A DNA stretch of 64,000 bases from the NCBI RefSeq assembly GCF_018977255.1, contig NW_024704755.1, positions 496,001 to 560,000 of the forward strand, in the 5' to 3' direction. The translations under genes and the position numbers were made by a program. The DNA is from Callorhinchus milii. Taxonomy: Eukaryota. The notes below the pieces were generated by a model. It saw only the letters and a list, made by a program, of their open reading frames with translations. It made no database searches and was not told where the DNA came from. This document shows positions 15,419 through 54,600 of this stretch, piece after piece. Within the stretch, counting starts at the first letter, position 1; every line of letters begins with the position of its first letter.

Positions 15419-26483
<11,065 letters not shown>

Positions 26484-26712: not shown

Positions 26713-26718
26713 AATAAA
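26713..26718 (+). terminator. GPI poly(A) signal AATAAA
   Basis: AATAAA 230 nt after the GPI stop, followed by U-rich sequence. Confidence 0.75.
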
Positions 26719-26893
26719 CCTGCAGCAGAACGTAATGTAACTGCCGGCTCTGTTTCCTTTCTGTCACCCCCCACACACTCTCCTATCCCCACCCCTCCTC
26801 CCCTACAGAACACCCACCACCTTGCAACCCCCCCCTCTCCTCACCCTGCCCTTCCTGTCACACACAGGCTCTGTCTATTAACTACAAAAGGTT

Positions 26894-27078
26894 TTTATTG
26901 AAAAAGATTATAGAATGTCTGGGTTAAACGTCACGGTAACATTTACAAGTTTAATAATTTAGGTGATGATCGTCTCGGCTTTTATTATTATTATTAAGAT
27001 AAATAAAAATCTAACTAGTCTCCCGCTCGGCAAACCAACCAACCAACCGCCGAGCCAGTGAACCGGCACCAGGACCGG
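26894..27078 (-). other. Orphaned 3' end of the WTIP 3' UTR, with minus-strand AATAAA signals
   Basis: TTTATT at 26894-26899 and 26981-26986 (AATAAA on minus) in AU-rich sequence. It abuts the left WTIP breakpoint, and I saw no AATAAA after the WTIP stop on the plus strand. Confidence 0.6.
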
Positions 27079-27088
27079 GAGTACTTCG
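27079..27088 (+). CDS. WTIP: Displaced last 10 nt of WTIP exon 1 (GAG TAC TTC G = EYF-G) with canonical GTAAGT donor
   Basis: gagtacttcg|gtaagt. Phase 1 matches exon 2 (G|GG ATC TGT = GIC). No upstream in-frame ATG (stop TAG at 27016). Confidence 0.8.
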
Positions 27089-27095
27089 GTAAGTG

Positions 27096-27690
27096 CCGTC
27101 ACCCCGCGCCCCCCCCCCGTCACCCCCCCCCGTCACTCCCCCCGTCACCCCCCCCCGTCACTCCCCGTCACCCCCCCCCGTCACCCCCCCCGTCACTCCC
27201 CCCCCCGTCACACCCCCCCCGTCACTCCCCCCCCCCCCCCGTCACTCCGCGCCCCCCGTCACGCACCCCCCGCGCCCCCCCCGTCACCCCCCCCCCGTCA
27301 CCCCCCATGTCACTCCCCCCGTCACCCCCCCCCGTCACCCGCACCCCCCGCACCCCCGTCACTCCCCCCCCGTCACCCCCCGTCACCCGTCACCCGCCCC
27401 CCCCCCGTCACCCCCCCCGTACTCCCCCCCGTCACCCCGCCCCCCCCGTCACCCCCGCCCGTCACTCCCCCCGTCACACCCCCCCGTCACTCCCGTCACT
27501 CCCCCCCGTCACTCCGCCCCCACCCCCGTCACTCCGCCCCCCGTCACTGCGCGCCCCCGTCACTCCGCGCGCCCCCCGTCACTCCGCGCGCCCCCCCCGT
27601 CACTCCGCCCCCCGGTCACTCCGCGCCCCCCCGTCGTCACCCCCCCCCGTCACTCCGCGACCCCCCGTACCTCCGCGCCCCCCCCTCCCC
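27096..27690. repeat. C-rich minisatellite ((C)n GTCAC/GTCACT units) at the start of WTIP intron 1
   Basis: Dozens of cgtcac(t)ccc.. units; second copy at 29762-30370. Confidence 0.95.
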
Positions 27691-28929
27691 GATGCCGGGG
27701 CCCGTCACTGGGGGCAGGGAATCCTCCCCTGTTAACCCCGCAGCCAGAGCCCTAACGGGTGGGATGGTGGAGCTGATATGGAGCGAGAAAGCTCATCAGA
27801 CAACGCTCTCTCTCCCTCTCTCTCTCTCTCGATGGCAAGTGATGTGGTTTTGTCAGGTTAGGCTCCAGCGGTCACCGCTAGAGCCCCCCCTGGGCTCCCC
27901 CAGGGCCCCCCCCCAGGGCCCCCCCAGCCTTGGCACTAGCCAACCTGCGGCTGATACTTTCCGGGATGCGGTGTGTGGGCTATTCCAGCAATCCGGCGGA
28001 TTTCCATGTGTCGGTGGATGTATGGAATTCTCAGCTTGGTTTGGAGACTCTAAGTGATGGGTTTCCGCTCGGTCAGACCTTCACTGAGCCACGGGCTGAC
28101 TGCCTCCTGAGCTGTAATGTTGGAGGATTCCATCCCAAAACTTCACACAAACCGAGTCAGTCCAGTTTCTTTGTGACGATGCGGTGGTTCGGAGTGTGAG
28201 TGTGGTCGATGGTGTGGGGGGAGTTGATCTCTTGGGCTCAGTGCTACAACATGAAGATACAATCCCTGACCATCTGTAGTTTAGTCTTCACTGTGAAGAC
28301 TTGAATGTCTTCACCAACTCTGTGAGGAGCAGGAGTTTAGGCTCCCAGATTTGATGGGTCTGGTTGATGTGTTACTGGTCTCGGCTGAGGTTACCAGGGA
28401 GGGGGGATTGGACAGGACTCCTCTCCTCATCACTATCCAGACCCCCCCCACACACACACATATACACACAGGTCAATTTCGTTGGTCATTAGCTTCATGG
28501 CTGTTTGTGGGACATTGCAGTGCACAAATTTGCTGCTGTGTTCGCCTTACAAAATGCAGTCACTACACTGTAAAGTAAAGGTCACGGCAGCCAATTGCAC
28601 ACAGCAGTGTCCCACAAAGTGACGTAGATCGAGTGACCCAGTTTTTAGGGGGGGGTGGGGGAGATCATGGTCTAACTAATCATTTATACAAGTTGAGCAT
28701 CATCTATTTGTTTATATTCTCTGCCCCTATTTCTAAACACTCAGATCTGATTAACTTTCTTCACACCCATCTTCATGCCTTTAATGGTGTATTATGCTAA
28801 CGTTTGGTCTGTCTGCTCTGCTTTTACATGTTTACTATTTCACATATACGTTACATGCTCACTCTGTTCTTCCCTATAAATTAACTTTTTGCGTTAAAAT
28901 TCATCCATCATCTTACTCCTTTCTATGTC

Positions 28930-29258
28930 TGTGACCTGCTCACGCTATATCAAGCTGTCCTCTCCCTCCGCTCAGCAGGTTCCGGACAGCTCCATGTGCT
29001 CGGCCCACCCCACCATCAGCGGTCGGGCCTTCAGCCTCTATGCCCCACTCTTTGCAACACTATCCCAACAGTCCCGCTCGCTCGCTCCCTCACCTCCTTC
29101 AAGGCACATCTCAAGACCCTCCTCTTTGACTGTGCCTTCAGCCTCCCTGCTACCCTCCACCCCTCCTGTTCCCAATCCCCAGCCCAGGTCCAAATCCCTG
29201 ATGCCTTGGGAAGTCCTCCCAACATGAAAGGCGCTATGTATATATAATTTGTTGTTGC
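28930..29258 (+). mobile_element. L2 LINE 3' end (duplicated at ~31610-31936)
   Basis: FKAHLKTLLFD motif and tail catgaaaggcgctatgtatatataatttgttgttg. Confidence 0.8.
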
Positions 29259-29736
29259 TGATCTACCGATCTGTCTGTGTCCTCCTGAAGTTCTCACAAG
29301 CTTGTTGCTTTTTTTTTAGCTAATTTCCTTATTTTTGAAACTTGTGCCCCTTTATTACCAGAATCAAAATCATTGATATAAATACAGGTCCTAACCTTGA
29401 GGGAACCACTGTTTACATCTCTCCAGTCTGAGGAACAAGTACATCTCCCACTCTCTGATTCTTTTCCTTTAACCAATTCTTTATCTTCGCTGGCGCCTCT
29501 CCCATTAACACCTCGCACTTAATATTTTTTACCTTGCCTTTTATGTGGCACCTTATTCAAGTCTTCTGAAAATCTTTACTTCCACATCTTCATGTGGGGC
29601 TTCAACCGAGCACTCCTGACTCAGAGGCGGGAGCACATCACTTTATTCTCTTGGTTATTTCATCAAAGAATTCTGTTAGATTTGTCAAACAAGATCAGCT
29701 TTTAATAATAACAATGATAATCCTTGCATTTGATAA

Positions 29737-29761
29737 NNNNNNNNNNNNNNNNNNNNNNNNN
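29737..29761. other. Assembly gap (25 N) separating two near-identical 2.68-kb copies
   Basis: N run; 27096-29735 is repeated at 29762-32413. Confidence 0.98.
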
Positions 29762-32413
29762 TCCCCCCCCCGTCACCCCCCGTCACACCCCCCCCCGTCA
29801 CCCCCCCCCCCCCGTCACTCCCCGTCACCCCCCCCCCCCGTCACCCCCCCCGTCACTCCCCCCCCCCGTCGCCCCCCCGTCACTCCCCCCCCCCCCCGTC
29901 ACTCCGCGCCCCCCCGTCCCCCCCCCGCCCCCCGTCACCCCGCCCCCCGTCACCCCCCCGTCACCCCCCCGTCACCCCCCCCCGTCACTCCGCACCCCCC
30001 CGTCACCCCCCCCGTCACTCCGCACCCCCCCGTCCCCCCCCCCCGTCCCCCCCCGTCACTCCGCCCCCCCCCCCCCGTCACCCCCCCCGTACTCCCCCCC
30101 GTCACCCGCGCCCCCCCGTCACCCCCGTCCCCCCCGTCACTCCCCCCGTCACCCGCTCCCCCCGTCACTCCCGTCACTCCCCCCCCGTCACTCCGCCCCC
30201 ACCCCCGTCACTCCCGCCCCCCGTCACTGCGCGCCCCCGTCACTCCGCGCGCCCCCCGTCACTCCGCGCGCCCCCCCCGTCACTCCGCCCCCCGGTCACT
30301 CCGCGCCCCCCCGTCGTCACCCCCCCCCGTCACTCCGCGACCCCCCGTACCTCCGCGCCCCCCCCTCCCCGATGCCGGGGCCCGTCACTGGGGGCAGGGA
30401 ATCCTCCCCTGTTAACCCCGCAGCCAGAGCCCTAACGGGTGGGATGGTGGAGCTGATATGGAGCGAGAAAGCTCATCAGACAACGCTCTCTCTCCCTCTC
30501 TCTCTCTCTCGATGGCAAGTGATGTGGTTTTGTCAGGTTAGGCTCCAGCGGTCACCGCTAGAGCCCCCCCTGGGCTCCCCCAGGGCCCCCCCCCAGGGCC
30601 CCCCAGCCTTGGCACTAGCCAACCTGCGGCTGATACTTTCCGGGATGCGGTGTGTGGGCTATTCCAGCAATCCGGCGGATTTCCATGTGTCGGTGGATGT
30701 ATGGAATTCTCAGCTTGGTTTGGAGACTCTAAGTGATGGGTTTCCGCTCGGTCAGACCTTCACTGAGCCACGGGCTGACTGCCTCCTGAGCTGTAATGTT
30801 GGAGGATTCCATCCCAAAACTTCACACAAACCGAGTCAGTCCAGTTTCTTTGTGACGATGCGGTGGTTCGGAGTGTGAGTGTGGTCGATGGTGTGGGGGG
30901 AGTTGATCTCTTGGGCTCAGTGCTACAACATGAAGATACAATCCCTGACCATCTGTAGTTTAGTCTTCACTGTGAAGACTTGAATGTCTTCACCAACTCT
31001 GTGAGGAGCAGGAGTTTAGGCTCCCAGATTTGATGGGTCTGGTTGATGTGTTACTGGTCTCGGCTGAGGTTACCAGGGAGGGGGGATTGGACAGGACTCC
31101 TCTCCTCATCACTATCCAGACCCCCCCCACACACACACATATACACACAGGTCAATTTCGTTGGTCATTAGCTTCATGGCTGTTTGTGGGACATTGCAGT
31201 GCACAAATTTGCTGCTGTGTTCGCCTTACAAAATGCAGTCACTACACTGTAAAGTAAAGGTCACGGCAGCCAATTGCACACAGCAGTGTCCCACAAAGTG
31301 ACGTAGATCGAGTACCCAGTTTTTAGGGGGGGGTGGGGGAGATCATGGTCTAACTAATCATTTATACAAGTTGAGCATCATCTATTTGTTTATATTCTCT
31401 GCCCCTATTTCTAAACACTCAGATCTGATTAACTTTCTTCACACCCATCTTCATGCCTTTAATGGTGTATTATGCTAACGTTTGGTCTGTCTGCTCTGCT
31501 TTTACATGTTTACTATTTCACATATACGTTACATGCTCACTCTGTTCTTCCCTATAAATTAACTTTTTGCGTTAAAATTCATCCATCATCTTACTCCTTT
31601 CTATGTCTGTGACCTGCTCACGCTATATCAAGCTGTCCTCTCCCTCCGCTCAGCAGGTTCCGGACAGCTCCATGTGCTCGGCCCACCCCACCATCAGCGG
31701 TCGGGCCTTCAGCCTCTATGCCCCACTCTTTGCAACACTATCCCAACAGTCCCGCTCGCTCGCTCCCTCACCTCCTTCAAGGCACATCTCAAGACCCTCC
31801 TCTTCGACTGTGCCTTCAGCCTCCCTGCTACCCTCCACCCCTCCTGTTCCCAATCCCCAGCCCAGGTCCAAATCCCTGATGCCTTGGGAAGTCCTCCCAA
31901 CATGAAAGGCGCTATGTATATATAATTTGTTGTTGCTGATCTACCGATCTGTCTGTGTCCTCCTGAAGTTCTCACAAGCTTGTTGCTTTTTTTTTAGCTA
32001 ATTTCCTTATTTTTGAAACTTGTGCCCCTTTATTACCAGAATCAAAATCATTGATATAAATACAGGTCCTAACCTTGAGGGAACCACTGTTTACATCTCT
32101 CCAGTCTGAGGAACAAGTACATCTCCCACTCTCTGATTCTTTTCCTTTAACCAATTCTTTATCTTCGCTGGCGCCTCTCCCATTAACACCTCGCACTTAA
32201 TATTTTTTACCTTGCCTTTTATGTGGCACCTTATTCAAGTCTTCTGAAAATCTTTACTTCCACATCTTCATGTGGGGCTTCAACCGAGCACTCCTGACTC
32301 AGAGGCGGGAGCACATCACTTTATTCTCTTGGTTATTTCATCAAAGAATTCTGTTAGATTTGTCAAACAAGATCAGCTTTTAATAATAACAATGATAATC
32401 CTTGCATTTGATA
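29762..32413 (+). repeat. Near-identical second copy of 27096-29735 (probable contig-overlap artefact)
   Basis: Offset 2678-2680 nt; identical ORF pairs (e.g. 28351/31030, 29294/31972); only ~3 differences seen outside the minisatellite. Confidence 0.9.
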
Positions 32414-34010
32414 TAGCGCTTTTCACGTCTTCTAGACATCTCAAAGCGCTTCACAGAATATGCTGTAAAGTGAATTGACTGTATATTTGTGGGCGAACGC
32501 GGCAGCCAATTGCGCACAGCAGCGTCCCATAAACAGTCATGGATTGAAAATGACCAATTTATTATGGTTTTGTTTTGGAGGGATTATTATTAGGCTCTGT
32601 GTGGAGTAAGGAAACTTGCCCAAGGTTTCGCCCTCTGCCTGGAATTGAACCAGGTGTCTCGCTTTTAACAACAACTTGCATTTATATAGCGCACTTGACA
32701 TGGGGCAGCATCCTGGAGCGCTTCCGAACAAATCCGTATTGACTGTCTATTACCCACTAAGTGGCACAGTCCAGGGTCAGTGGGTCTGACCAGAACTCAG
32801 GGAGGACAAGAAGAGGAGACTGTGCGATTCACACAGAGCGGACTGTGGAGAGTGGCCCGGGGGGCGGGGGGATGGGGTAGTGGAGGCATTTCGCCCATAA
32901 AATACAGTCACTGAATTTTAAAGTGTATCCTGTGAAGCGCTTTGAGGTGTCTCAACAAGGTGATAAGGCGCTATTATCAAATTCAAGGATTATTATTTTT
33001 GTTTCTGCAATTTCAAGAGGGAGTTAGTTATTGAAAAGAAATTGAGAGGAGTATAAGATTCTTTTATGTATTTAGCCGCAGACCTAAACTTTCCTGGGAA
33101 GCTATTGGAGAGGGGAGTTTCTCTCCCCCGGTGTCCTGATTGTTCAACCCCAACAAGAAGACCATTCGCTTGGAGCGAGGGGCTGAGGCTGAGGGGTTTT
33201 GATATTCGAAACAACGTCGTGCTCTGCGTGTTGGTGAAGCTCTGGGACGCTGCCCTGTCTGAAGGGTGCTATATAAATTCAAGTTGTTGTTGTTTAGGGA
33301 TTATTTTTTATTATGATAATTAATTGGTTACTACGGAAGCTAATTTGTTGCTGCTGTGAGCCTGAACCCGGTAAAACCACATTCCATTTGGCTGATGGGA
33401 GTTGGGACTCAAGTTCATTCTCCTGGGAACTGACCTGCTGGTTAATGTGTGCAGGTATAATTCTGTCCTGCATTGGTTGTACGGTTGTCATCAGGGAAAC
33501 AGTTTAATAATAATAATAATCCTTGCATTTGATATAGCACCATCTGTTTTCGAAACGTCTTAAAGCGCTTCACTGACTAGACTGTAAAGTGGATTGACTT
33601 TATATTTTGTGGGAGAAACGAGGCAACCAATTTTGCACAAACAGTCATGGATTTTTTGGAGGGATTATTATCCCTAGAAAGCAATCTGTCAAATGACTAA
33701 CAACCGGTTTCCTACTTACTGCTAAGTAAACAGAGGGATGGTGTGTGCGTGTGAAGTAAGGAAACTTGCTGAAGGGTTCGCCCTGCCCGGGAATCAAACC
33801 CGAGGTTTCTTGGTTGTGAGACAAGTGCTCCAACCACTAAGCTTCGGTATCTCTGGTAGAGCCCGAGAGCATCGGGGTTGACTGACTGCACTCAGAGCCC
33901 AATGCGGAGCGTTGTGTCTCTGAAGTGAGAGCATGAGCGAGAGGCTAAGGCAGGCTGAATGAAGCTAATGTGAATTGCTAATAGTGGTGCTGTTTACTGT
34001 GTTGTTGCAG

Positions 34011-36441
34011 GGATCTGTGTGAAGTGCGGGAAGGGGGTATATGGCGTGAGCCAGGCCTGTCAGGCCATGGGAAACCTCTACCACACCAACTGCTTCATCT
34101 GCTGCTCCTGTGGTGAGTGTCAGTTGAGTCCTCATACCCAAAACCTGGGGGCAGGGCTGGGACCTGGGGTCAGGGTTGGACCCGGGGCTGGGGTTGGGGT
34201 CGGTGATTGGGGCTGGACCCAGGGTCGGTGGTTGGGCCTGGGGTCAGGATCGGTGGTTGGGGCCCAGGGTTGCTGAGGTGCTCCAGTTGAAGGTCGTGTT
34301 TACTGGCAGGAGAGGAATGTCCGGAATGTTATTTTTTCACACGAAGCCGTCCTGTGGCTGTTTATCAGAGGCCAGCGCAGGCCGTCAGCAGCCTATCAGC
34401 TGCTGGTGCTCGCCGTTATCACTGGGCCGGGCGGGCTTAACCCTTCATTACCTGCGAGGTCAGCGTAATGTCTTCCCCGAGCGGTCAATCACAAGGCAGT
34501 GATAACGGTGTCTATCTTTAGCCTCAGCAGGTTTAGTGGGGCGGGGGGGAACAGTGGGCGGGGTGGGGGGGGGTGACTGGGGTAAGCTGCTCTTTCCTCG
34601 CTGTTTGCGCCCCCCCCGCCTGTGTAACGCTGAGTGTTTTCTATTAGGGAGAAGACTGAGGGGGAAAGCGTTTTACAACGTGAATGGGAAGGTTTACTGT
34701 GAGGAGGATTTCCTGGTGAGTGAACGTTGCTGTGGCGCTGGGGGAGGGAGGGGGAGCGCTGCATTATTGTCGGTCAGTATTTCAAAAGAAGGGAGTTACT
34801 TTCTTGCTCTCTCTCTCGGTGTCCTGGCCGACAATCCCCGGATTGAAGTGGCCACTTCGTGGCTGTTTGCGGGATGTGCAAGTTGGATGCCGTGTTTGAA
34901 TACATAACCACACTTTAGTAAATCCTGTGGAGCCCTGTGAGACGTCTCCCTGGTGCGAACAGCAAGGCTCAGTGTGTACTCTGCTCTCTCTTGCAGTACT
35001 CAGGGTTCCAGCAGACGGCAGACAAGTGCTTTGTGTGTGGTCACCTGATCATGGAGATGGTAAGTGAGCGATCACCACTGTCCAACTGGGGAGGAACATA
35101 AGGACAGGAAAGGCCCCCACCCCAACCTGTCCCATTCTATTAGATCATTGGCTGATCTGTAACTCAACTCCATTTAACTACTTTCTCTCCATATCGTTGG
35201 ATACCCCGACCTAATAAATATCTATCAACCGCGTTCCCTTTTAAGGAGTGAGTGAATTCCAGATTTCCACTACTCTCTGAGTGAAAAAGTGTTTCCTGTG
35301 TGGATACTGTGTAGAGGGAGCTTCACTGTGTCTCTAACCCTGACCTGGGAGTGTGGATGGAAATGGAGACACTGAGTTTCCTCTCTGCCTTTGCTCCCTC
35401 ATGGTTTCGGCAGTGACACACTGGTGATGAGCTGCTGGAGTGTGCTGACGAGGAGAAAGGGAACATTGCCCTCAGCTGTGTCAGTGACTCTGGGATGTGA
35501 AACATCTCTCTCTTTCTCCCCTCAGATCCTGCAGGCTCTGGGCAAGTCCTACCACCCGGGCTGTTTCCGCTGTGTGGTGTGTAATGAGTGTCTGGATGGC
35601 GTCCCGTTCACAGTCGACGTGGAGAACAACATTTACTGTGTCAAGGACTATCACACGTGAGACCCCCCCCCCCATCCTCTCCCCCTGCACTTTCCCCACC
35701 AAACACACCCTGTGCCATATTATGAGTCAACAGTATATAATCTCTGTCCCGCCCACTGCCCTAGTTACCCGTCCCCCACTGAGTGGCTTCACTGTGATGT
35801 TGTTTGTATTAATGTATCTAATCTCCTCTCTCCTAATGTAGGGTTTTCGCCCCAAAGTGTGCGTCATGTGGTAACCCCATCCTCCCGGCACAGGTACGTC
35901 TCTCACTCTGATCACAGTCATTGCTGGGGACCGAGGATTATGGGGGGGTGGTGGTGGTGGTCACTGGCTGGAGGTGTGGTCACTGGCTGCTGACAGATGA
36001 TTGTTGCCCCCCAGGGTTCAGAGGAGACGATTCGAGTCGTCTCAATGGACAAGGATTACCATGTGGAGTGTTACCATTGTGAGGTGAGTGAGGAAGAGAG
36101 GGAGGTGAGTGTCAGGTTATTGAGCAGGCTGGTTCGTGATGAAAAGCAGTGAGAGAGGGAGGTTAGTGATGGAGTGAGGGAGCGTAATGATGTGAGAGCG
36201 AGGGAGGTTGGTGGAGTGATTGAGTGACGGAGGTTGGTGAGCAAGGGAGGGAGGGTGTGAGAGCCGGGCTGAGCTGGGTGTGTCTGTGTTGCAGGATTGT
36301 CGGCTCCAGTTGAACGATGAAGAAGGCCATCGCTGTTACCCGCTGCACGGGCACCTGCTGTGTCACGGCTGCCACATCCGGCGGCTCAGTCTACCTTCAC
36401 CCCCGCCCCCCGGGTACCAGCTGCACGTCACTGAGCTGTGA
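34011..36441 (+). CDS. WTIP: WT1-interacting protein (Ajuba/LIMD1/WTIP family), exons 2-8 encoding three LIM domains, disconnected from exon 1 by inversion
   Basis: Exons 34011-34112, 34648-34715, 34997-35059, 35526-35656, 35842-35893, 36015-36083, 36295-36441, all GT-AG and in frame. [12 protein letters not shown]..., [33 protein letters not shown]...; ends in the WTIP-type PDZ-binding HVTEL*. Confidence 0.95.
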
Positions 36442-37682
36442 TGTGCAGAGGCTGGTGCACAACAAGGACTGGCAAAGGCTTGGTGCAAACAGCGGCCGAG
36501 GTGGAGTGGCCCAGTGCCAGGACAGGCCCCGCCCCTGCGGGGGTCACAACCTGAGAGAGGAAACGAGGTGGTGATGGCGGCTGACGTGCGGTGACACACA
36601 CAGCGCCGGCCGGACTGCGGAAGGTTCCGGTATCCAGCGGCCAATGGCAGCCACGACTGCCCATCAAATCATTCCGAGCGTCCGCGATGGCAGCTATGCC
36701 CCCCCCCCACCACGCTGCCCCCCGCGCCATCTTATGAGTTAATTTTATATTTAAAGAAAATTCCACATATAATGTTTTGTCACGGTGACCAAAGTAGCGT
36801 TACCCCTGCTCACTGGGCCCCGGGCTCCCCCCCGAGGTCCCAGCCGCCTCACTTAACCGATAGCAACTGTCCAAACCTGACCACAGCCGCTAACTCCACA
36901 GTAGTGATGCTTAACCAGATAATTTGGCACTTATTAACCCATTCCCTTCCTGTAATAACTAATCTCTCTACACGGTACCTTATACACAACCACAGTAATG
37001 CGAGGCAAGGGGAAAGCTCGCAGGTTTTAAACTTTTTTTTCCTTTATAATATCTGGTAGGTGAGTGACCTGGCTCTAGCCTCACCAGGGGCTGGGGGGTG
37101 ATGGCGGAGCAGGAATACACCCTTTCTGCCCTGTCTGCTGCTGTTGCTAAACCGTGTAACCCGGGATCAGTGTGTACCGGGGGGGAGTGTACCTGGTGTA
37201 GGTTGGTGGGATGGTACATTAGTGATATTGGAGCGTGGGGAATGGTGTACATTCCTGATTTATGTTTCTCCCTCTCCCCCGCCCCCCAATTTACTTTCCT
37301 GTGCTTTAGTTCATCCCAGAAGGCCCACGGACTGGGGTGGGGGGGCAGTGAAGGTCAGACAGCCAGTGCTGCTCTTGTGATGAGAACCTTGCCCCCCCCC
37401 CCACCAAACACTTCATGTTATCTATGATCAGTATGAGGGCCATGGGACAGTGTGTGTGTGTACTTGGGAGGAAGTGTGTGTAGGGTGAGTGTATATATGT
37501 GTGTGAGGAGGAGTGTGCTGTGGTGGGAGGGGGGAGAACAGCTGCTGAAAAGTTGAGCCGTTCGTCCCCTTCACAGAGAAACGGCTCCACCTCAGCTTCC
37601 GGCTCTAAACAGCCAAATGTGCAGCCGCCTGACTGACCCCCACCCCAGCTCTCTAACCCCATCTGTCCCTGTCCCCCACCCT

Positions 37683-39265
37683 TTTCTTCATGTGGAGCTC
37701 CAGCTCCTCTCCAGCTCCTTGGTCAGAGCCTCCAGTCTCCGCTCGGCCTGACTGGGGCCGCTCTCCCGGCTCGGGGTCACCTGGTACGGCAGCTTGAACT
37801 TGTGGGCCGCGGACGGGCCCTTCGTGGGGCTGATATTGTAGGAGAGGACGGTGATGGGGGTCGGGTCGGCGCTGGGGCCGCCGGGGGGCTGGTCGTGGCG
37901 AGGCGAGGCCTGGGCGTGGAGCCGGGGATGGTAGGGGTCCGCCGGGGAGGGCGGGTCGAGAGCCACGTACCCCTCCTCTGGGTGTCCGCTGCTCAGCACC
38001 GAGGCCCGGGGGGAGGGCAGCTGCAGGTCGGGGTAAGCGGCGCTCATGGAGCCGCGGGAGCTGTGGCTGGAGATGCTCGAGCGGGGACTGAGCACCGCCG
38101 GGCCCTGTCCGCCCGGACCCTCGGCCTCGGGGCTGGTGAGCTGCCCCGAGCGGCAGTCGGAGTAGCTGGAGCGGGGGCTGATGTGCCTCTGGTCGTAGCC
38201 CATACTGATGCCGCTGGTCCGGTTGCTGCTCGGTCTGCTCTCCGAGCTGTTGAGGCTGGCCCGCGGGCTGGAGTGTTTGCTGGTGTCGCTGGCCGTGCTG
38301 GCGTAGCTGGACCGGGGGCTCTCGTACTGGCTCAGGCTGGCCCGCGGGCTGGGGTAGCGCTCCCCGCCGCCCCCCCCCGCCACCACCACCAGACTGGCCC
38401 GCGGGCTCGGGTACTTGTCGTAGCCGCCGCCGTGCAGACTGGAGCGGGGACTGGAGTGTTTGCTGTGGTCCTGGGAGGAGGAGGAGGACGAGGCCAGACT
38501 GGAGCGGGGACTGGCGGCGCTGAGCCGCGGCTCCGGGGGCGGAGGCTCACACGCGCCGCTGCTCCTGTTCCCGACATTACTGTTTCTGGCGCCGCCGCCG
38601 CCGCCGCCGGACACACCGTTACCGCGAGGCTCCGCGACAGTGCCGCCGCGGCCGCTGGTGACGTTGTTGCGCTCCGCGGCGGCGGCGACGGCACTGCTGC
38701 GGGAAGCGGACACGTTGTTCCCGCGGCTCCCGGACCCGCTGCCTCCCGGGTACAGAGGGTAAGCGTTCAGCCGACTGCAGCTCAGCCCCTCGTAACCGCT
38801 GCTCCCGCCGCTGCCGCTGCTGCTCCCGGTGCCGGTGGAGTACCGGCGGCAGTCGGTGGTGTAACCGGGCGGGAACCCGTGCGATCTGAAGCAGCCGCCG
38901 TCCCCCTCCGCCTGGTGTAGAGGCTCCAAACCGCCGCGGCCGCCGTTGACCCCCCGGGGGGCGACCGGGGACGGGCAGAGTTTGCAGAGAGCCTCCCCCC
39001 CCCCGCCGCCGCCGCCGTGGAGATGATAGTGATACAGCCCCGAGCCGCCGCCGTTCAGCCGCCGACTCTCCCGCTGCTCCTCCCCGCCCGGCGGGTGTCC
39101 CGCCATCTGCAGGTACAGGTTGGGCTTTGTGTGGTCCGCGCACGGATTGCTCAGCTCTCTGCGGCCCCCGTACAGCCCGAGCCCGTCCCGGGCCGCCTCG
39201 TACAGCGACAGGTCCTGGAGGAAGCGGCTCGCCTGGACCCCGAGCTCCTCCGGGACCTCGGCCAT
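37683..39265 (-). CDS. WTIP: WTIP exon 1 (pre-LIM region), opposite strand to exons 2-8; 1-nt frameshift at ~37707 and truncated before EYFG
   Basis: ATG at 39265 (GCC ATG G): MAEVPEELGVQASRFLQDLSLYEA, resembling the LIMD1/WTIP N-terminus; SPRSS/SPRAS repeats; SNRTSGISMGYDQRH; GPSQAERRLEALTKELE. Adding one base gives ELE-x-ELELHMKK. As written it stops at 37690-37688 (525 aa). Confidence 0.9.
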
Positions 39266-40230
39266 GGCTTCCCTCCCACAGCCACACGGCCCCCGGGCCG
39301 TGGCCGCCCCTCCGGGGAGAGGACAGCGAACGATCAGCGAGAAACCGACCGACCCCCACAGGTCCCGATCACAAGAACATCTCCTGGACTCGATTCTCCC
39401 CGAAACCTCTTCCCGTCTCTCTGCCGCTGTTCCAGTCGGTTGATTGCAATTCACATTTTACCCAATAATAATAATAATAATAATAGACAGAATATATATA
39501 ATAATAAAACACACAGTGTGTGTGTGTGTGTGTGGGGACCGCAGCACTGAAGCTGAATGGCGCGCACGGCGGATGGAGCGCGATTTATTTTCAACGTGGA
39601 AAAGCGACCCGATCTGATCCGAAGAAAAAAGCAGCGACGCCGGAGAGAGAGAGAGAGAGAGAGGAGAGCCCCTCCCCCCCCCCCCCGTGTCTGTGCCCGG
39701 GCTCTGCGCTCTGCTCCCCCCGCGCTGAGACTTTGCAAAGTCCCCCCCCCCCCCCCCTCTCTCTCTCTCTCTCTCTGATCGCCCCCAGTACTCCGCAGTC
39801 TCCCCCGCGCCCCAGACGACAGGAGCCGGTGTTGCCCCCTCCCGGGTTTACACGCTGCTGGGGGGGGGGGGGGGGGGGCGGGGAGGGGGGGGGGCAGCCC
39901 CCGGTGCACTCTTTGGCGAGGCTGTGGAATGCGCGCAGGGGCACTGTGCAGTCGGGCAGCGCTCAGGCGGCCAGGAATGTGCTTAATACCGACGCCAAAC
40001 AATGTGATTGAGAGACTCGGGGAGGGGGGGGGGAGAGGGGGAAGGGAGGAGAGAGGGGGGAGGAGAGGGGGAAGGAGAGGGACTGAGAAGAGAGAGAGGG
40101 GGAAGGAGAGAAGAAAGAAAGAGGGAAGAACAGAAACGAGAGAAAACTTTCCGCGACTCCCACTCACACACTCACATCCACCCAAACCCATCGGTGCAGA
40201 GTCGCTCTGAGCGCTGGTAACGCAGATCCC
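39266..40230 (-). promoter_or_regulatory. WTIP 5' UTR / CpG-rich promoter region
   Basis: CpG-rich sequence directly upstream of the WTIP ATG. GGAATG (TEAD-like) motifs at ~39926 and ~39974; Ajuba-family genes are known YAP/TEAD targets, but function here is inference. Confidence 0.55.
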
Positions 40231-40231
40231 C

Positions 40232-41362
40232 CACTCACACCATGTGCCCCCTCCCCACCCACACACCATGTGCCCCCTCCCCACCCACACACCATGTGCC
40301 CCCTCCCCACCCACACACCATGTGCCCCCTCCCCACCCACACACCATGTGCCCCCTCCCCACCCACACACCATGTGCCCCCTCCCCACCCACACACCATG
40401 TGCCCTCCCCCACCCACACCATGTGCCCCTCCCACCCACACACCATGTGCCCCCTCCCCACCCACACACCATGTGCCCCTCCCCACCCACACACCATGTG
40501 CCCCCTCCCCACCCACACCATGTGCCCCCTCCCCACCCACACCATGTGCCCCCTCCCCACCCACACCATGTGCCCCTCCCCATTCACACCATGTGCCCCC
40601 TCCCCATTCGCACCATGTGCCCCCTCCCCACTCACACACCATGTGCCCCCTCCCCACTCACACACCATGTGCCCCCTCCCCACCGACACACCATGTCCCC
40701 CCTCCTCCCCACACACACACACCATGTGCCCCCTCCTCCCCTCACACACACCATGTGCCCCCTCCTCCCCACCCACACACCATGTGCCCCCTCCTCCCCT
40801 CACACACACCATGTGCCCCCTCCTGCCCTCACACACACCATGTGCCCCCTCCCCACCCACACACCATGTGCCCCCTCCTCCCCTCACACACACCATGTGC
40901 CCCCCTCCCCTCTCACACACAGTGTCCCCCTCCCCACCCACACACCATGCCCCCCTCCCCACCCACACACGGTGCCCCCTCCTCCCCTCACACACACGGT
41001 GCCCCCTCCTCCCCACCCACACACGGTGCCCCTCCTCCCCACCCACACACCATGCCCCCCTCCCCTCACACACACGGTGCCCCTCTCCCCCCACACGCAC
41101 GGTGCCCCCCCACACACACGGTGCCCCCCCCCCACACACATGGTGGCCCCCTCACACACACGGTGCCCCTCCCCTCACACACATGGTGCCCCCTTCACAC
41201 ACACGGTGCCCCTCCCCTCACACACATGGTGCCCCCCTCACACACACGGTGCCCCTCCCCTCACACACATGGTGCCCCCCTCACACACACGGTGCCCCTC
41301 CCCTCACACACACCATGCCTCCCCTCACACACACCATGCCCCCCCCTTCCCCTCACACACAC
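40232..41362. repeat. ~26-bp minisatellite (acaccatgtgccccctccccacccac) grading into variant units
   Basis: Roughly 40 visible tandem units; source of the spurious long ORFs in all frames. Confidence 0.95.
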
Positions 41363-43965
41363 ACTAACTCCCTCTGCATTTCCCAGATATTCTTTCAGCA
41401 ATAAATTGTTTTCATTTTTCACGTTAATAACACAACGCAGCCTCTTACAGGGCAAGTGTGACAGGGACGGATGTGGATAGACAGACAGACAGACAGACAG
41501 AGCAGCATTGTCTGTGGCCAGTCAGATCCTCACAGGCTCATACATGTTGTCGTCCCCCACACAGGCACACGCACAACACCCCACACCCACATACACGCAG
41601 CCCCACCCCTACACAATACATGTCTCCCCCCCCCACACACACACAGCCTCACCCCAACACACACGTCTCCCCTCCACACACACAACCCCCCCCCCACACA
41701 TACACACGCACCCTCCCCCCCCACACATACACATACAGCCTCCCCACCCCACACACACAGTTTGTGGGTCAGTGCAACAACCCAGAAACAATAACACAAG
41801 TCACACAGAGCAAGGCGGCCCTGGGGAATGTCTGTGCCTGGCAGTGGGTAAGGGCTGCAGCCTCAGTGTTCCTCGGCTCGGGAGCGGGAGGTGGGGGAAG
41901 AGGGAGTAAGGTAGAAACCGACAGGCTGACACCCTGACTCTATTCCCCAAATGTGTTTGCAAAGCATTATTGAGCAGCTTGAACGCTGTAATCGCTGGCA
42001 CACAGAGAAACTGTGTTAATAAGAACTCTAACTCTCATTCCAACTTGTGCCTTATCACCACCGGGTACTTTGAAGTGAAGGAATGAGTCCAGGAGGTGAT
42101 GTGGGCAGTGATTAGCTGATAATGACCTAAACCATACGCATCCAATCATCTCTCAGCCAATGTGGGTTTGGAATGTCTCGGGGCGGGTGTCTCTGTGTCG
42201 GGGTGGGGTGGGGGATTTTACCCACATCAGGGTGAGGGTGTTAGTACCACAACAACAGCTTTAGCCAACGACTCTTTCACACAACAGAATGTCCTCGAAG
42301 CCCTTCACACAATGTGGTTAAAGATAATTTTTTTCTTAAGAATCTCCAAACCAAGCTGAGATTTCCATGTATATTGTTATTATTATCCCATCTACACATG
42401 GAAATCCCAGCGATAGATTGTTGCAATGGAATGCACACTCTCTCTGTGGAGGGACGCATCCTGCTTACCTAATTCCAGAGAGTATTAGGCGCAGGTTGGC
42501 AAATGAAGCCAGTGTGGTTGCAAAGGTGAACACGGCAGCTAGTTCCCTGGACAACAACAAATTACATTTATATAACACCTTTCACATCATCTCTGTTCTC
42601 ATACAGGCTTCAAACTGTGGGACGTATCTCATGCCTAACCCTCAGCGCGGTAGGATTCTCATCCAGAGGAGCACAGCTGGCGGGGTGGGGAGGGGCAGAG
42701 GTGGTATATCTGACATTATAGAGCAGCAGGAGGGCTCCAAAATCCAATCCTTAAATCCTGAAGTGTCCCCTTGGGTCATCTCTGTGGACATTGCCAAAAA
42801 AATGGTCATCGATCCACAACTTTTTGTGAGGACATTGCTGTGCACATATTCGCTGCCCACAAAACAGTCACTGCACTTCACAGTAAATCCTGTGAAGCAT
42901 TTTGAGACATTCTACCAGCATGAAAGGATTGTGTTGGATGATATTATTACTAAATGAGTCAGTGGTGATCAAGGCAAGAATGTGTATTCAGATCGACAAT
43001 ATGTAGGGATGAGTCATTTCTACAAAGGGCAATAATATCATTTGAGATTATGATATTTCAGTCAAATTATAGGAAAATATATTAGTTGATTTTAGAAACT
43101 GATAATTCAGTGATATCTGAGATTGCGATCATTTCTCTTTCTCACTCTCTCATTTACGATCTCTCTCCTTTCTCTCACTTTTTCTATCTCACTCATGTTC
43201 TCTCTCTCTCACCTGCATTCTCTCTCTTTTCATTTTTTTCTCTCTGTCACTCATCTCTCTATCACCTGCATTCTCTCTATCACTCGCATTTTCTCTTTCA
43301 CTTTTTCAGTCATGTTCTCTCACTTTCTATCTCTCTTTACATGTACATAATAGATTGAGAAATGAAGCGCAGATCAGCACTTTGGGATGTGCAGAGGCAG
43401 CTGAACAAGAGCAAACAAGTTTCCAACAACTTCAGACACCGGCTAAAGCTAATCCTTCCCCAGAGAGAATGCCTCAAAGCGTTTCGCGGGAATTCACTAT
43501 AAAGTGTAGTGACTGTTTTTATAGGCGAAACACAGCGACGTCCCCCCAAACAGCCTTGGAGTGAGCAAGCAATTTTATTTGGGGGATTGTTGGCCAGGAC
43601 ACCAGAAGAAAGCGACTCCTTTTTCTTTTCCCTGGCAGCATCACGGGAGATCTTTAATGTCCACTTGAACCCTTCTCTCTCTCACTTTCTATTGATTGCT
43701 TCTATTTTGTCTCACTTTCTCACACATTTTCTCTCCCTATCACTCGTGTTCTCTTCCTCTCCCACTTTCTCTCCAGTTCTTTCTCTCACTTTTCCTGTGC
43801 ACTCTCTTTCTCCCATGTTGTCTCCCTCTTTCTCTCTCTCGTGTCTCAGCCTTGCAGGGTGGCCAGGCTTGATGCCACACCCACCCCCGGGGGCTGAGCC
43901 GGGACAGACAAACCGGTTGTGTTGCTACTGCTCCTGTTCTCCTCGCCCGACTGGGAGCTGCTGCC

Positions 43966-46900: not shown

Positions 46901-49900
46901 TGGATTCCCTGTCCCACCTGGCCGGGAGCATCATGCTCAGCAAATCCAGTTCCGCACAAACTGTGAGTGTCTCTCTTGTCCCAGGATTGCTTTTATCCTA
47001 CGATTTCACCTTAGTTTGTCAGCCTGGCTCAGTCGCGCTCTCACACCCCCAAGTCAGAAAGTTGTGGGTTTGAGCTCCCTACACATTGGGGACTCGGAAC
47101 CATATAGTCAAAGCTCCAGTGCAGATTGGAGGAAGAGAGAGCACTGCATTGTCGTGGGGGCTGTCCTCTGAATGAGACATTAAACCTCTGTGCTCTGTTC
47201 AGGGTGGACATTAATGATCTCTCTAAGGGGAAAAGAGAAGGGAATTTCTCTCTCTCTCTTCCGGCGTCCTGGCTGACAGATAAAACCATTTGCTCGCTTC
47301 ACAGCTGTTTGCGGGATGTCGCTGTGTGCAAGTTGGCTGCTGTGTTCGCCCACAAAACACACAGTCACAACACTCTACAGTCAATTCTGTGAAGCGCTTT
47401 GAGACGTCCTCCCGACCAAGTTAGGATTATAATTTTTTAAAACTATTCCATTGTTTTATTTTTTTCTCACAGCCTCATACTCTAATGGCAGACGAGCAAA
47501 TCCTTCAAGTAAGAGTTCAACCTCCACCACCCATCCCAGGCTCTGTCGCATTCGCACACCCTCAGACATACACCCTCACACAATGACACACAGTAACACA
47601 CACACACACCCTCACACAGTGGCACACAGGCAGGGAGTGGTACTGAGTGTGACTGTGTGTGTAACAGCCTGGACGCCCTCTCGCCTGAGCTTCACGCAGG
47701 ACGGTCATGATGTCACAGTTAGCTTCACCGCCGCCGCTGACACCGACAACATCAACAGTTACCACGTCTACCATGGTCGCTGCCCTCCCGGGGAGCCGGC
47801 TCCTCTCTCCTGGCAACACACCCACATGGTGAGCAAACTCTCCCCCTGCACCACACTGTCTGTGTCTGTTTGTACGTGTCTATGTGTGCATCTGTGTATG
47901 CACACGGGTGTGTGTCAGTGTGCATGTCTACATCTTGGTGTTGGTGCTGATTTCAACGATAAAGCCAAGTCTCTTCCCTCAGCCTCATGACGGAGCTGGG
48001 ACTGTGCAGGTTAGACTGGGGAGCCTGGAACCCGGCTTTAACTACAGTGTTGTGGTGAGTCAACTCCTCCCTCCATAGACTGCAGATCATCCAGATCTCT
48101 GCAGTCCGTGTCCTCTTCCACACCAGGCTCCACGACTGTATCACCTACCTCCTCGCCTGACTCCGCTGGCAGAGGATACAGTTCAAGATCCTGGTCCTCA
48201 CCTCCATAGCCCTCCTTCCCCTACCTCTGCGACCTTTTAATAATCCCCTACCAACCTGCCCGTTTCCTCCTGCTTCATGTCCCCCGCTTCAACCGCCCCA
48301 CCATTGGCAGGTGGGCCTTCTGCCACTCTGCTCCACCCTCTGGAACTCCAACCCTCAGTCCCTCCACCTCACCCCCTCTCTTGCCTCCTTCAAGACCCGT
48401 CTCAAGACCCTTCTCTTCGACCGTGCCTTCGGTCACCCTCATTCCCCCCCACTTCCCTCCACCCTCCCCAATCCTGACTCCCAGCTTGGGTCCGAAACAC
48501 TGATTGTCCAGCGCCTTGGGACGGCGGACCTGCCTGGCTCAAGAACCGGACTAGAGACAGGCACGGAGGACTGGCTCGATTCCAACATTCCGTTGCCAAA
48601 CTTGTCACCTTAGAGCCAGTTCAGTTCCAAGGGACCCCGCTTCTTGTTGTCTCTGAGAGCATTGTGCTGAGTTGGTTTCTTCTCTGACACACTGAGTGTG
48701 TATTTTTTGCAGCTTCTGTCTGATCAGGAGGGAGCTGAGCGACGAGAGGTAACATATTTTGTGAAATCAGGTAAGTCTGAGCTCACAGGACCGGCTGACG
48801 CTCTACCGCAGATCTGGAGGGAGAGAGAGCGTCACATTGTCGGAGACTTTAAACCTCACTCCCCGTCCGTGCCCTATTTGGGGCGGATGGTAAAGATTGG
48901 TGTGTGTGTATGTGTGTTAACCCTGTAAAACAAAGCCCTAACAAGTCGGTGATCCAAGTCGCGGGAAAGCTTGCTAGACAGCATTCTCAATGGTGGTTTC
49001 AGCTGGTTAGACTCCAGCAGTTATTCCAACCCACACTCTGGGATCCCCTAAGCCTTGGCTCTCGCTCTCTAAGCATGGTGATGGGATTCTGCGTGGGTCA
49101 GGCATGCGGCTGACTGAAGTATAAAGTGTGTGTACATGCGTGTGTGTTCACAGAGCAGACAGGAGAGGGACAACAACTCACACTTACTCTGCTGCTGGTG
49201 CTCTTTGCTCTGATCTCGACCGTTGTCACTGTGACAGCCAGTCATCTCATCAACAACAGGAAGCAAAGTGAGTGTGCTTCATCTCTGCTCACCGTGTGTG
49301 TTTGTTTTGTGTGTATTAAGAGTGTGTGTTTGTCAGTGTATATATATGTCAATGTGTATGTCAGTGTATGTGTAAGTACGTCAGTCTGGCCTTCTATCTC
49401 TGCCTTTCTCATTGTCTGACTCTGTCTGTTTCTCTCTTCTCTCAGATGGAAAGCGAGGTGAGGCTGGCTTTGGGGACGACTCTGTGTCTGAGCCCTTCAC
49501 AACACAGAGAGTCTCTAACCCAAGAGTCTTTCTCCTGTACCCAGACACGGCCTCTCCAACGCTGCTCAACGTGGTACTTCACTTTGCCACTTTCCTACAG
49601 GCACACTGTGCTTGTCAGGTTAGTCACTCGCACTCCCCCCAGGCCTACACACATTCACAAATTAACACTCACCCCAATCCAATACACCCAGATGCACTCA
49701 CACAGTGATAGACACACTTACATACACATACTCTCACACACATACACTATGACACTGACACACACACACACTGTGACTGTGGTGTCTGACTCCCCTCAGG
49801 TGGTGCTGGACATGTGGGAGGAGCTGGCGAGGGGCCTGGAGGGGCGAGCAGACTGGATAGTTCGGCAGTTGGCTGAGGCCCACTTCATCGTTGTGATGTG

Positions 49901-50279
49901 TTGGCCGGGAGGCGGCTGCCCACCGGGGCCCGGATGGGGGGGCTTCTTCTCCCTGGGGGTGTCACTGGTGGCGGAGCAGCTCCTCCAGGCCCGGATAAAT
50001 TCAAGCGGCCTCTCCCGCTTCATTGTGACCTGTTTCGGACAATGCAGAGAGGCCGATGTCCCTGGGGTGCTGGATTTGGCCACGAAATACAAGCTGATGG
50101 AGGCCTTGCCCAGGTTTTTCTCTCACCTTCACTCCCTGGAACTGCTGGGCCCAGGCCTGGCCCTGCACGTGGACGGGATCTCAGAGGAGACTTACCCTGC
50201 AACCCCCTCTGGATTTGCTCTGTACGAAGCTCTAAGACTCGCTGGGGAAGATGGGAGCATGGAGTCAGCCACACTCTGA
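43966..50279 (+). CDS. Divergent interleukin-17 receptor D (Sef)-like type I membrane receptor with SEFIR domain, 12 coding exons, 529 aa
   Basis: Exons 43966-44004, 44404-44482, 45847-45990, 46495-46610, 46845-46962, 47473-47508, 47668-47828, 47983-48054, 48713-48770, 49154-49267, 49446-49618, 49800-50279; GT-AG, 1590 nt in frame. Signal peptide MWLTVLLLVIVVQTGS, with an in-frame stop upstream at 43870. AVTIEWNPSPYGIEFVQGFRV and WTPSRLSFTQDGHDVTVSF resemble the IL17RD ectodomain. TM segment LTLTLLLVLFALISTVVTVTA. SEFIR: PRVFLLY, NVVLHFATFLQAHCACQVVLDMWE, DVPGVLDLATKYKLMEALP. The first two exons are less certain. Confidence 0.85.
44675..45137 (-). mobile_element. L2 LINE 3' fragment
   Basis: Minus-strand PTIGGQAFSHSASTPWNSIP..SFRTQLKTLHF and L2 tail. 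Confidence 0.85.
45138..45560 (+). mobile_element. CR1 LINE 3' fragment
   Basis: LYSLEFRRLTGDLIEVFKMIKG..LFPL..TRG; 3' end gaacaggctcgaagggctgaatggcctcc. Confidence 0.88.
47020..47412 (+). mobile_element. Near full-length tRNA-derived SINE
   Basis: Head cagcctggctcagtcg..gagtcagaaagttgtgggtttgagc, Deu-like body and L2-like tail gtgaagcgctttgagacgtcct. Related copies at ~17550-17730, 46090-46365, 50290-50525, 54130-54570 (+) and 20230-20690, 58090-58530, 63010-63375 (-). Confidence 0.8.
48060..48522 (+). mobile_element. L2 LINE 3' fragment
   Basis: LWNSNPQSLHLTPSLASFKTRLKTLLFD motif. Confidence 0.85.
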
Positions 50280-51645: not shown

Positions 51646-54600
51646 ATGGAGGAAGTTGATCGGATTCTGCTCAACTCCCTGAGACAGAGCGGCGCGTGAG
51701 TCACCCCCTAACTCAATAACTAACTCATTAACTAACCCCACAACAGCTCACTCACCCCACAACAGCTCACTCACTCAGTAACCAGCTCAATACCCCATTA
51801 ACCAACTCACCAACTCAGTAACCAGCTCAATACCCCATTAACCAACTCACCAACTCAGTAACCAGCTCAATACCTCATTAACCAACTCACCAACTCAGTA
51901 ACCAGCTCAATACCCCATTAACCAACTCACCAACTCAGTAACCAGCTCAATACCCCATTAACCAACTCACCAACTCAGTAACCAGCTCAATACCTCATTA
52001 ACCAACTCACCAACTCAGTAACCAGCTCAATACCTCCATTAACCATCTTAATAACTAACTCACTGTCTCAATACAACTTGCATTTATACAGCGCCCCCCA
52101 CGCCGGGCGGCATCCCAGAGCACTCAATAACCAACATAGCAAGACAGCAGCCCGTGGGTCATCCCCTAACCCAATAACTGTCCCAATAACCAACTCACTA
52201 GCCCAATAACTAACTAACTAACCAACCCCAGGGCGGCACGCAAGTTTCTCTTTAATCCAATAACCAGCTCACTATCCCAATACCTAATTCAATAACTAAC
52301 TCAATAATCAACTTCCTTGGGCAGAACGGCATGTGAGTCACCCAGCAATTCAGTAACTAACTCAATAACTTCCCGAGTCACGGCAGAGCGTGTAACTCAC
52401 TGACTGATTAGATAACTCACTGCCTGACTGGCTGAGCCACTGACTGGCTGCCTGTGACTAGTGTCTCTGTCTTCACAGGGACATCGCGGAGGATGTGGAG
52501 AGCGTGCGACAGCTAACAACTGAGCTGATTGTGGAGTGCGTGGTCCGCTGCTTGCGTATCCTCAACCCGGCCCTTGGGAATGGCGTCAGCCACTTGCTTC
52601 CACCGGGAATGTCGGCTCGGTTCCGGATCGGAATGTGCCTTGCCCAGGCCTGTCAGGTGAGCGATATCTTGAGGAGATGAGCTGATGAACGAGCGAGCAG
52701 TTTTATCTATTGAAATCTATCTAGTATTATCTCTGAAATGCTGTACACTGTCCCCCCCGATGTGAAAGGCTCTATACAAATGTAATCTTGTTGTTGTATT
52801 GGCCAGGAAAAAAGATCTCCCTTTTACCCCCGATAGTGCTGCGGGAGATCTTTGATGTCCTCCCTGAATAGGGCATGGATTGCGAGTGAGGTTTAATGTC
52901 TCATCCGAAGGACGATGCATCCGACAATATGGCGTTCTCTCCCCGCCAGCACTGCACTGGAGGGTCCGATCTGTGGACATTAAAGATCTACCACCGCACC
53001 GTTGGAAAAAAGGGAGTTTCTCTCTGTCTCTCTTAATCCTTTGTATCTTCTCCTACATGTTTAGGAGCTGGGTTACCAGGGTGAGATTGGGTACCAGACT
53101 TTCCTCTACAGCAATGAGCCGGAGATCAGGCGTCTCCTCATGTTTCTGGTGGAAAAGCTTCCTCGAGACAGTGCAGACACAGCAGACCAGCCTGCAGGTA
53201 AGTTATGGCAGCCCGGCTCAGTTGCTGTGTATGTCAGCCTGGATCAGTCACTCGCTCAAACAAGTCCTTCTTTGTTTTGTGTCTTGACAGAGAAATCAGT
53301 TCTCCTTCAGAGATTGATTGCCACTAAGATCAAGCAGCAACTGGCCAGCGCTTGGCTACCGCCTGCTCTCCGCACCACGTCTCTGCTCAACACTCAGGTC
53401 AGTCTCTCATAATAAGCCTCACATCTGGCCAGAGCTCCCACCTCAAGAGGATGTCTTGAAGTACTTCCCAGGGATTCGCTGTAATGTGCGTTTTGTAGGG
53501 CCACCGATTTGAGCACAGTGAACGTTTTTATCTGTTGGCCAGGACACCGAGAGAGAGAACGAGGGGAAGGAGAGAGGGAGAGTCGCTTTTCCCCCCAACG
53601 GCGTTGAAGGAGATCTTTAACAACTAATAACAGCCATGTGTGTTTCTTACACAGAATTCCTGCCTGATGAACAAGTTCCACTCTCAGGCGCTCAGCTTGG
53701 TGGGCAGCACAGAGGGACACGTCCCGAGAGGTAAGTGCAGCTGAGTGAGAACAGGCCTGATTGCCTGACATCCGGGGCGACGTCTCGATGCGCTTTACCA
53801 GGTTTCACTGCCTCTGGTTCTGAGCTGTGGGGGTGAGAGACAAAGGGAGCTCTCTCCATCTGCTCCTCCTCTCTCCCCCTCTCAACAGTCTCTCTTGTTC
53901 ACAGAGCTGTGGGAATACTGGGAACAGCACCAGCCGCCGGTGACAGCTCAGGCCTGGGACCAGGCCTGTGTCGCAGCCTCTGTGCTGGAGCGAGCGACAG
54001 CTGACCTCAGCGCCGTGCAGGAGTGGGAAGCAGAGTGGAACAGCCAGGGCTTGGTCTCTCGACTCTCCCCTGAGGTAGGTGTGGCACTCTGGGAGGTGGG
54101 GGAAAAGAGAGCTCCTGTTTCATTGTGTATCAGCCTGGCTCAGTTGCTTGCACTCTCACTTTTGGAGTCAGAAGGTTGTGGGTTCAAGCCCTACATCAAG
54201 ACTTGCAATCACACAGTCAAAGCTAACGCTCCAGTGCAGTGCTGGGGAGTGTTGCATTGTCGGGGGCGCTGTCCTTCGGATGAGACGTTAAACCAAGTTC
54301 CCCGTTCATGCTCTGCTCAGGTGGACGTTAAAAGATCTTTCCACAGCATTATTCGAAAAGAGACGGGAGTTTCTCTCTCCCCTCCAGTTTCCTGGCCGAC
54401 AATCTCCAAATAAAATCGGTCTCTTGCTCCATGGTCGTTTGTGGGACACTGCTGTATGCAAACTGGCTGCCTCGTTTCACCCACAAAATACAGTCACTAT
54501 ATTTCTGTGAAGTGCTTTGAGATGTCTCAATGATGGGATAACGCACCATATCAAATGCAAGGATTATTATGAAAATATCTTCTCCCTATGTTTTTCGTTC

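Follow-up and report, generated by a model that had tools for sequence, protein, structure and literature searches.

Split of WTIP over two strands in the Callorhinchus milii genome assembly and its probable origin in a local mis-assembly

The inversions of F8 intron 1 and intron 22 are gene-breaking rearrangements that arise by recombination between inverted repeats. WTIP, a gene linked to LATS, is placed together with Ajuba and LIMD1 in one subfamily. In mouse and zebrafish work the WTIP protein is described as binding WT1 and shuttling between cell junctions and the nucleus (PMC10376620; PMC4991684), and by analogy the orthologue treated here may do the same. Wtip-null mice are reported to die as embryos, so that a homozygous knockout is unlikely, and heterozygous mice to survive, with proteinuria after injury (PMC10376620). 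Knockdown of wtip in zebrafish is reported to disturb heart looping and left-right asymmetry (PMC4991684). Published gene orders, given with no mention of orientation, place WTIP immediately downstream of GPI in teleosts, gar, coelacanth, frog, turtle and birds, with UBA2 and PDCD2L next to it in birds, reptiles and amphibians (PMC4684624).

Faults that imitate rearrangement are described from genome assemblies as well. Long-read gap filling leaves overfilled gaps, underneath which the authors suspect inversions and assembly mistakes, a gap being defined there as 25 or more N (PMC3504050). Overfilled gaps and false duplications have been tied to duplicated sequence or to assembly errors (PMC3504050, PMC9635638). 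In the literature consulted, no source equating 25 N with an overfilled gap was found, and nothing specific on false intragenic inversions.

The window analyzed here is the whole stretch of 64,000 nucleotides from C. milii (assembly GCF_018977255.1, contig NW_024704755.1), and positions refer to it unless contig positions are given. It contains a WTIP gene that is divided between the two strands by a backwards piece of 10.6 kb. We consider this piece to be a local mis-assembly, set in the wrong orientation, and WTIP itself to be intact (probability about 0.88).

Layout and identity of the split gene

As assembled, WTIP lies in two orientations, with most of exon 1 on the minus strand and the end of exon 1 together with exons 2-8 on the plus strand. 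The parts of the gene and its neighbor are the following.

21245-26483, plus strand: exons of GPI (phosphoglucose isomerase), PF00342 matches in order; convergent neighbor
26881-27077, minus strand: likely distal 3' UTR, suggested by contig overhang lengths; poly(A) signals 26986, 26955 and 26899
27078-27094, plus strand: final 11 bases of exon 1 with the GT donor; the left junction is 27077/27078
34011-36441, plus strand: WTIP exons 2-8, with three LIM domains and the stop; AG/GT ends, no internal stop
34011-34112, 34648-34715 and 34997-35059, plus strand: exons 2, 3 and 4
35526-35656 and 35842-35893, plus strand: exons 5 and 6
36015-36083 and 36295-36441, plus strand: exons 7 and 8, stop at 36441
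36442-37681, plus strand: proximal part of the 3' UTR, belonging to the flipped piece and on the same contig of run X3 as the exons
37681-37684, no strand: right junction of the flipped piece; listed contigs of all four runs compared end here, and 37682-37683 are matched by none of them
37684-39265, minus strand: coding part of WTIP exon 1 between the ATG and the break, in true orientation; about 527 codons of the pre-LIM region
37705-37706, minus strand: run of 2 bases with one base missing, the apparent frameshift

A split across the strands had been proposed by a sequence-only reading, and it is borne out by the sequence, the open reading frames and the exon ends of the window. The exon 1 frame starts with the ATG at 39265 on the minus strand, shifts near 37705 and reaches the codons for H-M-K-K at the break at about 37684. 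The stranded E-Y-F-G codons and the GT donor are indeed present at 27079-27094 of the plus strand; after them come intron 1 and, as had been claimed, intact exons 2-8. Turning the piece back and inserting one unknown base at the frameshift reproduced the expected single gene, with a coding sequence of 2226 nt, 741 aa and no internal stops. Minus-strand poly(A) signals were likewise found where that reading had seen them, just left of the left junction (starting at 26986, 26955 (ATTAAA) and 26899), and no plus-strand AATAAA occurs from the stop (36441) to 39503.

Neither junction contains N, and within 300 bases of the two there is no shared inverted word of at least 10 letters, which agrees with the earlier description of the junctions; on the latter ground a repeat-mediated (NAHR) inversion was rejected. 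The geometry of the inversion, previously put at about 27079-37682, stood, with a small probable correction to its ends: contigs stop at 37684 and 37681, and from these alignment stops it is more likely that the flipped piece spans 27078-37681 rather than 27079-37682. When each of the two junction stretches was searched in the whole assembly, a single full-length match, to this same sequence, was obtained. Apart from these there were only two short matches at 76-77%, and a second intact copy or a haplotig in the assembly was rejected.

The pre-LIM part matches residues 300-519 of the 740-aa model XP_007906089.1 (WTIP, C. milii) at 100%, and tblastn with this model gave 93.8% over the exon 1 frame, extending beyond the frameshift. 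XP_007906089.1 is an intact WTIP model of the same species that runs through the junction, has LIM domains (PF00412) in three stretches and is the sole member of its protein cluster; as a predicted model it may lean on transcripts. The re-joined protein differs from it in four places, one being the unknown base placed at the frameshift and the other three one extra Gly, Val193 for Ala and Phe531 for Leu, and beyond residue 531 the exons 2-8 of the window show no difference. The Leu is residue 530 of the model, and the corresponding window codon (27085-27087), among the last codons before the donor, encodes Phe. Among 121 proteins compared the junction motif was present in 97 and absent in 24, and Phe precedes Gly in 96 of the 97 motif-bearing sequences, Leu being found in XP_007906089.1 alone. 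This Leu may be a base error, an allele or the mark of a patched model.

The top named matches of the pre-LIM region are WTIP, and the LIMD1-like protein of the same species is a separate record, 76% identical over the LIM part. Judged by these top matches and by the adjacency to GPI, the gene appears to belong to WTIP of the Ajuba subfamily, nearer to WTIP than to LIMD1 or AJUBA. No truncated WTIP model of the species was seen among 81 matches of 30-406 aa at E <= 1e-100, a blank of little weight.

Pfam scans covered 150 of 270 candidate ORFs left of WTIP and 150 of 240 right of it, and among the latter no match to UBA2 or PDCD2L was obtained that could serve as an orientation marker. The 3' ends of GPI and WTIP converge within a few hundred bases (26713-27007). 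A second plus-strand AATAAA lies at 27002, and the GPI and WTIP messages would overlap if GPI used this signal. The WTIP start has a C-rich minisatellite (40228-41370) some 1 kb upstream of it. Further to the right on the plus strand follow a SEFIR domain of the IL-17 receptor type (49320-50276), spread over two frames (profile positions 2-34 and 32-150) with a frameshift that is either a consensus error or the sign of a pseudogene, exons of CCDC22 (52462-56827) and a frame with an exonuclease and a GRF zinc finger (61821-62738), which resembles APEX2. Old LINE-like remnants with weak reverse-transcriptase matches occur at 1-1001, 12982-14128 and 18533-19003, including an inverted pair at 78%, and just right of the window there is a large tandem array (contig positions 563104-574793) with units of about 0.7-2.5 kb that are 95-96% identical.

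The right junction in public sequencing runs

Part of 36295-39300 is matched by 17 of 24 public runs, and four of them were aligned to 33900-39500, a region that includes the right junction only. The four runs represent four samples from two studies, and none is known to derive from the assembled animal. X1 and X2 are contig sets of genome size (study P1). None of the matching runs is recorded as RNA; X3 and X6 (study P2) are guessed to be RNA from their spliced contigs, in which all six introns between exons 2 and 8 are skipped at GT..AG. The comparison was made with contigs instead of raw reads, and contigs drop rare variants.

In all four runs the listed contigs end at 37681 and at 37684 and continue into other sequence. 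None of the contigs listed for the four runs crosses the assembled right junction; a minor contig that does so could exist beyond those listed. Both spliced runs join exon 1 to exon 2 at 34010/37684, on opposite strands (depth 53.9 in X3 and 22.4 in X6). A single contig of X3 (record 17, 2750 nt) holds exon 1, exons 2-8 and the 3' UTR. Its positions 1-680 correspond to minus-strand exon 1 as far as 37684, position 691 to exon 2 on the plus strand (34010), and the 3' UTR reaches 37681 at position 2553, after which 197 further letters follow. Between the exon 1 and exon 2 sides there are 10 letters in X3 as well as in X6, which by count is what the stranded end of exon 1 predicts.

The overhangs of X1 and X2 do not fit the assembled neighboring sequence either, and amount to 88 and 143 letters past 37681 and to 8 and 32 letters past 37684, respectively. 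By their lengths, overhangs of 88, 143, 164 and 197 letters past 37681 would land at 26990, 26935, 26914 and 26881. The one of 197 letters would then overshoot the last AATAAA by 13 letters, and the 88 letters of X1 would stop within an AAT repeat. On the other side, the 32 letters of X2 would reach exactly up to the tandem repeat of intron 1. Read as the uninverted gene, these three contig ends would fall at natural stopping places.

The loss of one base in a short run is a usual consensus error of long reads. An extra base behind 37705 is present at full depth in all four runs, in keeping with the earlier proposal that one base added at about 37707 mends the frame, and the loss at 37705-37706 is likely a consensus error. 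Each of the five further length variants listed for coding exon 1 amounts to a multiple of 3. The Gly and Ala runs at 38590-39003 vary in length between the four runs in steps of 3 bases. At 37108, 38570 and 38688 there are substitutions in which the four runs all differ from the window.

These data bear on an inversion that would be fixed or common in the species, with WTIP either knocked out or rescued by trans-splicing or splicing across strands. The assembled sequence taken alone would fit such an inversion, and the cross-strand RNA joint would formally fit trans-splicing. However, the contigs of X1 and X2, which are of genome size, depart from the assembled path at 37681 and 37684 too, the LIM exons are without a stop, and the listed coding length variants are in frame, all of which makes a fixed inversion extremely improbable. 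Splicing cannot repair a break that falls within the exon, 11 bases short of the donor; trans-splicing was rejected on this ground and for the departure of the genome-size runs from the assembled path.

The sequence-only reading had left the choice between a real, recent knockout of WTIP and an unusual mis-assembly, and had named full-length spliced WTIP mRNA in advance as evidence against the former. A spliced exon 1-exon 2 message was found in both spliced runs, and with no listed contig over the right junction in any of the four runs the knockout is contradicted; of the two, mis-assembly is the supported reading. In these four samples WTIP is intact and spliced, with eight exons, and the split is not a species trait. 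The test covers these samples and not the genotype of the assembled animal.

Duplication near the left junction and origin of the flipped piece

The start of intron 1, next to the left junction, is present twice around a run of N.

27110-29735, plus strand: first copy of a 2.6-kb duplication, comprising a C-rich tandem repeat (about 27110-27685, TRF) and 2 kb of intron 1
29737-29761, no strand: 25 N exactly between the two copies
29763-32413, plus strand: second copy, continuous with the rest of intron 1

The two copies are 97.2% identical over 2668 columns (97.4% in a scan of the surrounding contig); leaving the tandem repeat aside, three internal differences, plus end effects, occur in the remaining 2 kb. 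The first copy starts 32 bases inside the left break. Because of their place between two near-identical copies, the 25 N are read as an assembly gap, which they probably are, although masked N would look alike. Near-identical direct copies thus flank an N run, as in a false duplication at a gap. In 464 kb of the contig around the window, two of three multi-base N runs have direct, near-identical copies on both sides. On the same contig (contig positions 316443-349718) a direct duplication of 16.6 kb (99.1%) flanks a run of 30 N, and is probably another false duplication at a gap.

Under mis-assembly, all of the true gene would be on the minus strand, convergent with GPI, and its 3' end would be close to 26880. 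At the start of intron 1, the C-rich tandem repeat may have broken the assembly. An extension of the gap that began at the exon 1 side and failed to close it would leave the 2.6-kb stretch in two copies around 25 N. The block that includes this patch may subsequently have been joined in reverse without N. Mis-assembly is favored by contigs that leave the assembled path in four of four runs, by the cross-strand joint in two and by the frameshift base in all. Against it stand the letter-to-letter junctions, without N or inverted repeats, which are unusual for a scaffolding error. Alignment ends also point to two shared letters and two extra letters at the junctions, and a 2-base shared end with a 2-base insert is what end-joining repair leaves, though an artefact can look identical.

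The same traits would suit an assembled animal in which one chromosome carried a private 10.6-kb inversion made by end joining, a null WTIP allele shown by the haploid assembly. Blunt, N-free junctions without an inverted repeat are in keeping with it, the two shared and two extra letters fit end joining, and a heterozygous null could be viable. The substitutions at 37108, 38570 and 38688 could mark a private haplotype, and the assembled animal is not known to be the source of any of the four runs. On the other hand, the inversion is unseen in four of four samples (right junction, listed contigs), a sequence doubled around 25 N begins 32 bases from the left break, and a one-base loss contradicted by all four runs lies 22 bases from the right break. 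Since a double copy and a base loss lie so near the breaks, the local trouble points to assembly, and we hold a private allele to be unlikely, though clearly less so than a fixed inversion. If true, it would be a natural null of a gene essential in the mouse, segregating in a chimaera at low frequency. Its interest would be modest and population-genetic, as an inversion that breaks a gene by no new mechanism.

The evidence taken together leans clearly to error: the flip does not belong to the real biology of the species, and WTIP is an ordinary orthologue. Within a conserved gene, the assembly nevertheless carries an internal flip free of N and the loss of one base, which is a warning: with such faults present, claims of gene loss or rearrangement drawn from this genome need read support first.

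Comparison with known systems

As in the overfilled gaps described earlier, a short N run is flanked by near-identical copies (PMC3504050, PMC9635638). Unlike here, no two-sided, N-free flip around a gap is described in the available parts of those reports. The locus resembles the F8-type inversions in that one portion of a gene faces the opposite way to the remainder; it differs from them in having no inverted repeat at the breaks and in a right junction that none of the contigs listed for the four runs contains.

With vertebrate WTIP of the Ajuba/LIMD1/WTIP subfamily the gene shares the pre-LIM region and the three LIM domains, and nothing in the data shows a biological difference from this orthologue. 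The YFG junction between the pre-LIM exon and LIM1, which the sequence-only reading had held to be conserved, has the form K-K-E-Y-F-G-x-C-x-K-C in the homologues and in this WTIP alike. Finally, WTIP lies directly downstream of GPI in other vertebrates, and GPI adjoins the present WTIP too.
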